From Escherichia coli (GTDB taxonomy: Bacteria; Pseudomonadota; Gammaproteobacteria; Enterobacterales; Enterobacteriaceae): 64,000 nt of DNA. Positions 20,101 through 21,812 of the stretch are shown here, piece after piece. Under the pieces are notes generated by a model. It saw only the letters and a list, made by a program, of their open reading frames with translations. It did no database searches and was not told the origin of the DNA. Each line of letters begins with the position of its first letter. Positions within the stretch are counted from its first letter, which is position 1. The stretch is from NCBI RefSeq assembly GCF_003334335.1, contig NZ_QOWQ01000015.1; one strand, given 5' to 3'. The position numbers and the translations under genes are program-made.

Positions 20101-20400
20101 TAATCGGACTCCATAAAATATATTTTAATCAATTGTAATGGTGGAGCGATTAAGTGATGAGAGGCGATATGTCGGTAAACAATGACAATTTGAGACAGAG
20201 TGAAAGGTCAGATTTGCGGAGTAATGCACATAATGGTTATTTAAATAAACCACATGAATCATTAATGGGTTATTCATTATTTTTGTGATTTACTCACAAT
20301 GTATCAGGGAAATATAACTTACCGGGAGATGTAATATGTTTAATTTTTCAAATCGAAATTTAAAATATTGTGCCGGAGGCATCTCTGGCACATTGGGCAA

Positions 20401-20715
20401 TTACGGCAGGTAAAACACTTCTTGCAGCTCGCTACTCACCGGGCTGTTATCCGGGTTAGCGGGCATAACATCGGTCATATATTTCCACCAACGTTGGCAA
20501 ACATCAGTGCTGGCAACCGCATTCCAGCGTTCTTCAGATTCAATCTCTACCATGGCAAACAGCAGATTACGCGCTTTGTCGAGATAGATGGCGTAGTTAT
20601 GCGCACCGTGAGATTTCAGCACTGCTTCCAGTTCTGGCCAGATGGGATTATGCCGACGCTGATACTCTTCGTGGGCGTCGGGGTTTACCTGCATGACAAA
20701 GGCTTTGCGGATCAT
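20401..20715 (-). CDS. rhaM: L-rhamnose mutarotase
   Basis: ORF track, 104 aa, [30 protein letters not shown]…. Confidence 0.93.
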
Positions 20716-20724
20716 GTTTGCTCC

Positions 20725-21549
20725 TTACAGCGCCAGCGCACTGGCGAGTGGCGTAACGCCGAAACGCTTGCCGAGCGCTATCAACTCTTCACGGCTGATG
20801 GTCTGTTTCATGCCGCCCATCGAATAAACCTTCACTAATACTTGTGCTGATTTTTCTGCGGTGTCGATTAAACCGAAGGTTTCATCCAGCGTCGGTCCGC
20901 TGCCGAAGACGCCGTGGAAGGGCCACAACACCAGCGAATGTTTTTGCATCTCTTGTGCGGTCGCCTGGCCGATTTCGTCCGTGCCGGGCACCATCCACGG
21001 CAAAATGCCAACGCCATCCGGGAATACCACCAGACACTCGGTGCTGCCTTCCCACAGTTGGCGAGTGAAGACCGCGGTGTCGTTTTCAAGTACATAGGTG
21101 AGGGCGATCAGGTTGGTGGCGTGGCAGTGCATGATCACCCGATCTTTGCCGTTGGTGGCTTTAATGCGCTCGCAGTGGGAAAGGAAGTGAGCCGGAAGTT
21201 CGGAAGTGGGGACGGCTTCGTTGGTTAACCCCCAAAGAATGTGGTAGCCCGCGCCGTCGCTGTCGACTTTTACGATGCCTAAGTTAGCCGCAGGATCAAG
21301 CTGGACGTTACGGAAGAATTTGCCCGAGCCGGTGACAATAAACGGTGTATTTGCCAGTAAAGGCATGGGCTGGCTGAGCGGGATATAGCGCGGTTGTTGG
21401 TGGAAATTGTCGTGATATGGTGCGATATCGGCGTCATCCAGGCGTAGCGTCAGGTTGCCGCCGTTGCGCTCATCCCAGCCTTTCAGCCAGGCGTCGGTGG
21501 TGGCTTTGATCATTCCCTGGACAAACCAGGACTGAGTAATGTTTTGCAT
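20725..21549 (-). CDS. rhaD: Rhamnulose-1-phosphate aldolase (class II)
   Basis: ORF track 20725..21720 is an upstream read-through; true start at internal ATG (plus CAT 21547-21549) giving 274 aa, [18 protein letters not shown]…. Confidence 0.93.
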
Positions 21550-21574
21550 GTTCTGTGTTCCTGTAAATTCGGTG

Positions 21575-21812
21575 TTGTCGGATGCACGACCCGTAGGCCG
21601 GATAAGGCGCTCGCGCCGCATCCGGCAATCAATGCCTGATGCGACGCTGTCGCGTCTTATCAGGCCTACAACTATTGCCGACCTGTAGGCCGGATAAGGC
21701 ACTTGTGCCGCATCCGGCAATCAATGCCTGATGCGACGCTGTCGCGTCTTATCAGGCCTACAACTGTTGCCGACCCGTAGGCCGGATAAGGCGCTCGCGC
21801 CGCATCCGGCAG
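21575..21812. repeat. Tandem REP/BIME array (about 2.5 copies of a roughly 92-bp unit) between rhaD and rhaA
   Basis: Unit ccgtaggccggataaggcgctcgcgccgcatccggcaatcaatgcctgatgcgacgctgtcgcgtcttatcaggcctacaact recurs starting near 21591, 21683 and 21775. Confidence 0.9.

Follow-up and report, generated by a model that had tools for sequence, protein, structure and literature searches.

What does the A+T-rich stretch between the rhamnose catabolic genes and the frv operon of Escherichia coli hold, and is the 25-codon open reading frame (ORF) found there, on the strand opposite to both operons, a gene? The question was addressed in a 64,000-nucleotide stretch of E. coli chromosome (hereafter the window), positions 20001-20500 of which are 100% identical to strain HS and to many other strains. 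An earlier description made from the letters alone (hereafter the sequence-only reading) had pointed out the A+T richness of the region, had judged the ORF to be probably a chance occurrence, and had suggested that the region may hold the frv promoter together with H-NS or other silencer sites. To our knowledge, the literature on the frv operon is nearly empty.

Gene order and composition of the rhaM-frvA junction

The A+T-rich region of the sequence-only reading coincides exactly with the spacer between rhaM and frvA (Table 1), which corresponds to positions 4092824-4093123 of MG1655; the ORF falls at 4093059-4093136 (plus) of that genome, and the hairpin described below at 4093092-4093115. 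In 200-nt windows over 20100-20399 the G+C content is 0.32-0.33, compared with approximately 0.50-0.58 in the flanks and approximately 0.53 in the surroundings. A scan of 19000-21800 against Rfam (E up to 10) gave no match inside the spacer, and the sole matches in the scanned region were REP-type naRNA4 elements between rhaD and rhaA.

The latter are two REP/BIME-type elements at 21596-21666 and 21688-21758 that match Rfam naRNA4 (RF02564, 77 bits, plus strand). The rhaD-rhaA spacer in which they lie measures 266 bp in the window and 450 bp in MG1655, indicating that the copy number of these repeats is strain-variable. A further difference between strains concerns the other rhaD junction. Some E. 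coli (2013C-3513, 2313) carry a gene for a fucO-like lactaldehyde reductase between rhaD and rhaM, and a rhaD-rhaM gap of matching size is seen in most other Enterobacteriaceae (compared loci L005, 2224-3372, and L008, 801-909). In the window rhaM and rhaD are only 9 bp apart (20715-20725), and the fucO-like gene is consequently absent.

Table 1. Features of the rhaM-frvA junction, in window coordinates
Feature	Position	Strand	Evidence
frvB	18192-19649	minus	
frvA (PTS fructose-like EIIA), first gene of frvABXR	19654-20100	minus	
rhaM-frvA intergenic spacer, 300 bp, 32-33% G+C; porin-less allele of a dimorphic locus	20101-20400		
Conserved frvA upstream region; putative frv promoter, operator and 5' UTR	20101-20288	minus	cross-genus alignment
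GGAG, putative frvA ribosome-binding site, 8 nt before the ATG at 20100	20109-20112	minus	invariant in 13 of 13 aligned sequences
TACAAT, -10-like hexamer (TAAAAT in most other genera)	20132-20137	minus	conserved as TA(A/C)AAT in 13 sequences
GCTCAT, conserved block	within 20154-20163	minus	13-sequence alignment
TCATCA, weak -35-like hexamer, 17-nt spacer to TACAAT	20155-20160	minus	
Inverted repeat TTGTCA-N8-CGACAT, candidate FrvR operator	20169-20188	minus	alignment
CRP-like element TGTGC-ATTACT-CCGCA	20215-20230	minus	alignment
Allele-specific segment, 80 bp, only in porin-less E. coli alleles; holds the ORF start	20289-20368		
GGGAGA, Shine-Dalgarno-like hexamer, 6 nt before the ORF ATG	20324-20329	plus	
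25-codon ATG ORF, judged a chance ORF and not a gene	20336-20413	plus	translation, allele comparison
T-rich tail 3' of the hairpin on the rhaM strand, AATATTTTAAATTT	20355-20368	minus	
Hairpin TGTGCCAGAG-ATGC-CTCCGGCACA (rhaM strand), putative intrinsic terminator of the rhaBADM transcript	20369-20392	minus	inverted repeat, folds
rhaM (L-rhamnose mutarotase), last gene of the rha catabolic cluster	20401-20715	minus	
rhaD	from 20725	minus	

Anatomy and background frequency of the 25-codon ORF

Translation reproduced the ORF as it had been described, with 25 codons between the ATG at 20336 and the TAA at 20411-20413. The GGGAGA said to precede it is likewise in place, and the GGAG that it contains (20325-20328) lies 7 nt before the ATG, at a spacing suited to ribosome binding. 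The overlap with the 3' end of rhaM that had been claimed for the ORF amounts to its last 13 nt (20401-20413), which are antisense to the rhaM stop codon and to the last four codons of that gene. Upstream of this overlap, a G+C-rich inverted repeat (20369-20378 and 20383-20392) makes up codons 12-19, and the first 11 codons lie inside the allele-specific junction segment, which is poor in stop codons.

Frames of this kind are not rare in the surrounding DNA. On its two strands the window holds 288 ORFs of 25-60 codons that begin with ATG, 10 of them with GGAG, GAGG or AGGA 5-14 nt upstream, and at least one ATG ORF of at least 25 codons was obtained in 67% of shuffles of 20101-20420. From these frequencies, the ORF needs no explanation beyond chance. 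Small proteins of E. coli K-12 are validated by initiation-site ribosome profiling and tagging. The ORF resembles the validated examples (up to 50 aa) in its length of 25 aa, its ATG start, its well-spaced Shine-Dalgarno-like GGAG and its intergenic location. Unlike these, its frame varies even among E. coli strains, it is unannotated, its product has no hydrophobic helix or recognisable feature, and half of it consists of the putative terminator hairpin.

Conservation of the ORF among E. coli genomes

Conservation was assessed by comparing a 120-nt query over the ORF with 5426 complete E. coli genomes. The sequence was present in 2842 genomes, and in 2131 of them the ORF was intact at at least 99% identity. 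Since the intact copies are nearly identical in DNA, they are uninformative with respect to selection. A second allele class, represented by FORC_043, 2013C-3513 and 2313, forms a band of about 690 genomes at 80-90% identity. In this FORC_043-type allele a 13-bp insertion (ATATATTAACTGA) at GGGAGA splits the Shine-Dalgarno-like hexamer, and a 1-bp deletion directly after ATGTTT (codon 2) shifts the frame. The same ATG here opens a 19-residue frame (MFIFQIEIKNIVPEASPAH, then stop) unrelated to the ORF after residue 2, and the frame expected of a small-protein gene is in this way not conserved between the two classes. Despite the split hexamer, AGGTG precedes the ATG in the FORC_043-type allele. 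Both porin-less allele classes accordingly retain an ATG with a Shine-Dalgarno-like purine run ahead of it, and translation initiation as such is still possible in either. The ORF region is missing from the remaining genomes, in which a gene for a RafY-type porin occupies the site. In a single strain, 02B21CPO003B, an IS1 element lies inside the ORF, with its target duplication at 20354-20362.

The curated MG1655 record (NC_000913.3) carries no annotation between frvA and rhaM, and the peptide string occurs in no searchable paper text. The exact peptide is also missing from a collection of 15 billion protein sequences, which is a weak test as gene callers seldom report products of 25 residues. 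Among the listed small-ORF rows of the Ribo-seq tables of Stringer et al. 2021, there is no entry for the locus. A consensus scan of the spacer returned no plus-strand sigma-70 match of at least 9/12; the best candidate upstream of the ORF ATG scores 8/12, with CATAAT at 20229-20234, about 100 nt away.

These data bear on the possibility that the ORF is a real, young and lineage-specific small-protein gene, which arose de novo at the porin-less junction and is expressed from a plus-strand transcript. Such a gene could account for the well-placed GGAG and for a frame left intact in about 2130 genomes, and it would agree with the finding that the common T-to-C variant at 20387 is synonymous in the ORF; moreover, ORFs of this size with a Shine-Dalgarno-like motif number about 10 per 64 kb and not hundreds. 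The near-identity of the intact copies is, however, silent on selection, and the sister allele has lost the frame after codon 2 and has its Shine-Dalgarno sequence split by 13 bp. Nor does any plus-strand promoter candidate score above 8/12, and the one with that score lies 100 nt upstream. The curated K-12 annotation, which takes in small proteins validated by Ribo-seq, does not include the ORF, the listed rows of the one Ribo-seq table set likewise hold no entry for it, and codons 12-19 are dictated by a hairpin that is conserved for another reason. We therefore hold a young gene to be highly improbable. Almost no chance is given to a more elaborate version, in which a very young de novo gene formed when the porin-less junction became joined to the rhaM hairpin, gives rise to a scarce plus-strand transcript, for instance upon relief from H-NS silencing, and is translated only in the lineage with the K-12-type allele. 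If that version were true, the sister allele would encode a different product of 19 residues from the same start.

The ORF is instead very probably a chance frame running over a terminator hairpin and an allele-specific junction, in a spacer made up of the end of the rha operon and the frv control region. The "probably chance" of the sequence-only reading is borne out by a frame that is broken in a common allele, lost where the porin gene is present, unannotated, and associated with a peptide that is off record. The observation itself is ordinary, and the ORF is removed from the list of small-ORF candidates.

A conserved hairpin directly downstream of rhaM

On the rhaM strand, a hairpin with a 10-bp stem and a 4-nt loop begins 8 nt after the rhaM stop codon. 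Written as RNA of that strand, it reads TGTGCCAGAG-AUGC-CUCCGGCACA, followed by AAUAUUUUAAAUUU. An inverted-repeat search found the two arms to be 90% complementary, and the fold of the rhaM strand reached z = -2.6 relative to shuffles. The imperfection in the window stem is one A.C mismatch on the rhaM strand, equivalent to a G.U pair on the plus strand. A consensus promoter and terminator scan of the window allele returned zero sites; because of the A.C mismatch, a simple scanner misses the hairpin. In alleles with C at the position of 20387, as well as in FORC_043-type alleles, the 10-bp stem is perfect with 7 G-C pairs, and the scanner reports a minus-strand terminator in both kinds of allele, whose tails contain the 5 T in 8 that it demands. 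The T/C polymorphism at 20387 splits the K-12-type alleles roughly two to one, with T in the window and in K-12. Judged from its A.C mismatch, the T allele may be a less efficient terminator and permit read-through towards frvA.

The hairpin was retained in every allele examined, including those in which the ORF is frameshifted or split by IS1. To extend the comparison beyond E. coli, the first 60 nt after the rhaM stop codon were folded in approximately 78 loci of other Enterobacteriaceae, fetched with a RhaM query. Nearly all of these loci have a strong G+C-rich hairpin at the same position, varied in sequence and mostly between -15 and -35 kcal/mol. A related hairpin, GCGGUGCCGGA-AAAUA-UCCAGCACCGC, is present in the porin-bearing E. 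coli alleles, where it occupies the 40-nt spacer between the convergent rhaM and porin genes.

The element thus combines a stable G+C-rich stem-loop, a U-rich tract and a location at the end of an operon that is conserved in position, as expected of an intrinsic terminator. On the grounds of this anatomy and conservation, we infer that the hairpin is the intrinsic terminator of the rha catabolic transcript. It is similar to rho-independent operon-end terminators in having a G+C-rich 10-bp stem, a 4-nt loop, a T-rich stretch on the coding strand and conservation across Enterobacteriaceae, and its position between rhaM and the porin gene in porin-bearing strains is that of a bidirectional terminator between convergent genes. 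It differs from canonical intrinsic terminators in the internal A.C mismatch of the window allele and in its interrupted U tract (AAUAUUUUAAAUUU), the tail starting with AAUA ahead of the U run. With such a tract, the hairpin is probably not a strong terminator and may release transcripts inefficiently. Neither operon, rha or frv, is expressed in standard media, and rhaM and frvA have no entry in the 3'-end tables of Adams et al. 2021, obtained under conditions that do not induce the rha operon.

The same imperfections could be taken to mean that the hairpin does not terminate rha transcription at all, being a relic of a bidirectional terminator once shared with a lost porin gene, or else a protein-binding palindrome, so that rha transcription reads into frvABXR. 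The A.C mismatch and imperfect U tract on the rhaM strand of the window allele, a stem that improves in plus-strand RNA where G.U replaces the mismatch, and the related hairpin between two convergent genes in porin-bearing alleles would all be understandable on these terms. Yet in about half of the spacer-bearing genomes the stem is perfect, a T-rich tail follows it on the rhaM strand and the scanner calls a terminator, and on the plus strand the stem is followed by AUUGGGCAAUUAC, which is no U tract. Hairpins directly 3' of rhaM are moreover near universal whatever the downstream gene, and a relic or palindrome is accordingly regarded as improbable. An operon-end terminator, possibly of limited efficiency, is the reading adopted in what follows.

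Conserved blocks upstream of frvA

BLAST aligns positions 20103-20288 with the sequence upstream of frvA in porin-bearing Escherichia alleles, at 72% identity, and in Citrobacter and Salmonella (subsp. diarizonae and arizonae), at 63-68%. Taken together, the alignments with these two genera and with other Escherichia cover 88-211 nt at 63-72% identity. In an alignment of 13 sequences from Escherichia, Citrobacter, Salmonella, Kluyvera and Trabulsiella, the similarity resolves into discrete blocks, invariant or nearly so, on the frvA strand (Table 1), and the region expected to hold the frvABXR promoter is hence conserved among species that keep the operon. The earlier suggestion that the frv promoter may be located here gains indirect support from this alignment, in which the 190 bp adjoining frvA are shared by five genera with invariant motif blocks. 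From their conservation we infer that the blocks constitute the frv promoter and operator.

The pair TCATCA-17-TACAAT has 8/12 sigma-70 matches, which is below the threshold of the scanner. If TACAAT serves as the -10 element, the inverted repeat would be centred about 54 nt and the CRP-like element about 98 nt upstream of the resulting start. In most other genera the repeat reads TTGTCAC-N8-TGACAT; TTGTCA does not vary in the alignment, and 12 of the 13 sequences have an unaltered GACATAT. The CRP-like element has 7/10 matches to TGTGA-N6-TCACA in the window and 8/10 in Citrobacter (TGTGT-N6-CCACA). It is conserved as TGTG-N8-C-N-CAAA, with invariant TGTG and CAAA columns.

The operon ends with frvR, whose product combines an HTH_11 domain at the N terminus with a PTS_EIIA_2 domain at the C terminus. 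This architecture fits a PTS-controlled DNA-binding regulator that could use the repeat as operator, and the conserved inverted repeat is probably the FrvR operator. PTS-controlled HTH activators of the MtlR/LicR/ManR type usually bind just upstream of the -35 element. The frv arrangement is similar in that the adjacent operon encodes an HTH and EIIA regulator and the repeat is situated just upstream of the weak -35. Unlike regulators of that type, FrvR shows no PRD domains at the Pfam threshold.

Additional elements were observed in or next to this region. A perfect palindrome at 20284-20298, TGTGA-TTTAC-TCACA, has CRP-like half-sites with a 5-nt spacer. It lies where the cross-genus homology gives out, and the two porin-less allele classes do not differ in it. 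A minus-strand ATG ORF of 50 codons (20125-20277) runs in the direction of frvA through the conserved promoter and operator blocks, and was considered as a frv leader peptide. It has no equivalent in Citrobacter, Salmonella or Kluyvera, and porin-bearing Escherichia alleles carry different ORFs; it was rejected as a chance ORF. Trabulsiella guamensis (L079, 6310-6483) provides an independent instance of frvA directly after rhaM, 174 bp apart and without a porin gene, and the frvA-proximal blocks are conserved. In strain EC2001 an IS1 insertion, with the 9-bp target duplication TTTAATCAA (20124-20132), separates the -10-like hexamer from the frvA ribosome-binding site.

The A+T richness of the spacer also permits a different emphasis. 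frvA has been reported among poorly transcribed and largely horizontally acquired genes at which an rpoZ mutation strongly changes the occupancy by RNA polymerase. The spacer could on that basis be mainly a site of H-NS nucleation and silencing that keeps frv cryptic, its base composition reflecting silencing and not promoter content. A tract of 300 bp at 32-33% G+C is of the kind expected of an H-NS silencer, as is the membership of frvA in that poorly transcribed, largely foreign group. The motif prediction gave less encouragement to the silencer sites proposed in the sequence-only reading, since the spacer has no match with at most one mismatch to the published high-affinity motif (TCGATAAATT-like). 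It does contain two 2-mismatch matches to TCGATAAATT, at 20110-20119 (plus) and 20342-20351 (minus), when about 0.4 per 300 bp would be expected from the window average. The discrete conserved blocks near frvA, however, are typical of sites for specific factors and not of bare A+T richness. H-NS silencing as the main role is, in our judgement, doubtful; it would in any case be compatible with a promoter and operator at this site and would not replace them.

Porin-bearing and porin-less states of the junction

In strain ET245 a 1395-bp gene lies on the plus strand between frvA and rhaM. Its 464-aa product matches the RafY glycoporin family from end to end (PF16966, E = 8e-154). At a coverage of at least 80%, the porin gene is found in 2557 of the 5426 E. 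coli genomes (approximately 47%), a distribution complementary to that of the 2842 porin-less genomes (approximately 52%), and RafY-type glycoporin genes thus occupy in nearly half of the species the very spacer analysed here. In these other E. coli the porin gene is convergent with rhaM. Strains resembling phylogroup B2, such as ST95-32, have kept the porin gene and lost frvABXR together with part of yiiG. Outside the species, rhaM followed by a convergent porin gene is widespread in Citrobacter, Kluyvera, Klebsiella spallanzanii and Pseudocitrobacter, and the order rhaM-porin-...-frvAB was found in one Escherichia sp., two Citrobacter and one Kluyvera.

When ET245 was compared with the window, identity was 100% across frvB and the whole of frvA, as far as its start codon. 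It changed abruptly to 56-78% in the spacer, was 92-98% in rhaM, and returned to 100% from about 20814. This abrupt change indicates a patch exchanged by homologous recombination. Between the two states the frv control region shows a divergence of about 28% even though frvA and frvB can be 100% identical, a pattern which implies that its two versions arose long before the strains in which they are found. The spacer of the window is consequently one state of an old two-state polymorphism that is moved by homologous recombination. The sequence-only reading was right in treating the ORF as probable chance, its suggestion of a frv promoter has indirect support, and it missed both the rhaM hairpin and the porin dimorphism.

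Comparison of 20101-20400 with porin-bearing loci (L003, 6101-8011, and L002, 6213-8001) showed that the alleles have in common only the rhaM-adjacent hairpin and the 190 bp nearest frvA, with no alignable trace of the porin gene in the window. Both the cross-genus and the porin-allele alignments end at about 20288. When the segment 20289-20368 was aligned with the porin cassette and its upstream region on both strands, the Smith-Waterman scores equalled the shuffle mean. The segment has no other copies in E. coli genomes and no matches in phages, and its only matches in plasmids are chromosome-sized E. coli records filed as plasmids. An origin as the scar of a porin gene was considered and is not claimed, as there is no significant alignment to the porin cassette. 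An 11-nt match (ACATCTCCCGG) 3' of rhaM in E. whittamii was dismissed as chance, the downstream gene being unrelated.

Insertions and deletions have also affected the spacer in individual strains. IS1 has inserted independently more than once (20124-20132 and 20354-20362). In strain E41 an IS1 element adjoins a deletion that removes frvA, frvB, frvX and most of frvR and cuts the 3' end of rhaM.

Discussion

In combination, these comparisons suggest a simple organisation of the junction along the minus strand. The rha catabolic transcript would end just 3' of rhaM, at the hairpin 20392-20369 and its T-rich tail. The next 80 bp (20368-20289) would form a stretch confined to E. coli alleles without the RafY-type porin gene, and the last 190 bp (20288-20101) would serve as the frv control region, comprising a CRP-like site, the probable FrvR operator repeat, a weak -35/-10 pair and the frvA ribosome-binding site. 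The 25-codon ORF on the plus strand would then be a by-product of the junction segment, the hairpin and the antisense of the rhaM stop codon.

The spacer is in this way assigned to ordinary functions, a terminator at the end of one operon and the control region of the next, and carries little biological weight. For the frv operon and FrvR, both of them uncharacterised, the conserved footprint supplies testable candidate sites in the form of the inverted repeat, the CRP-like element and the -10 hexamer. For E. coli as a species, the rhaM-frvA junction is a clean two-state polymorphism and a tidy example of an old pair of alleles that recombines.
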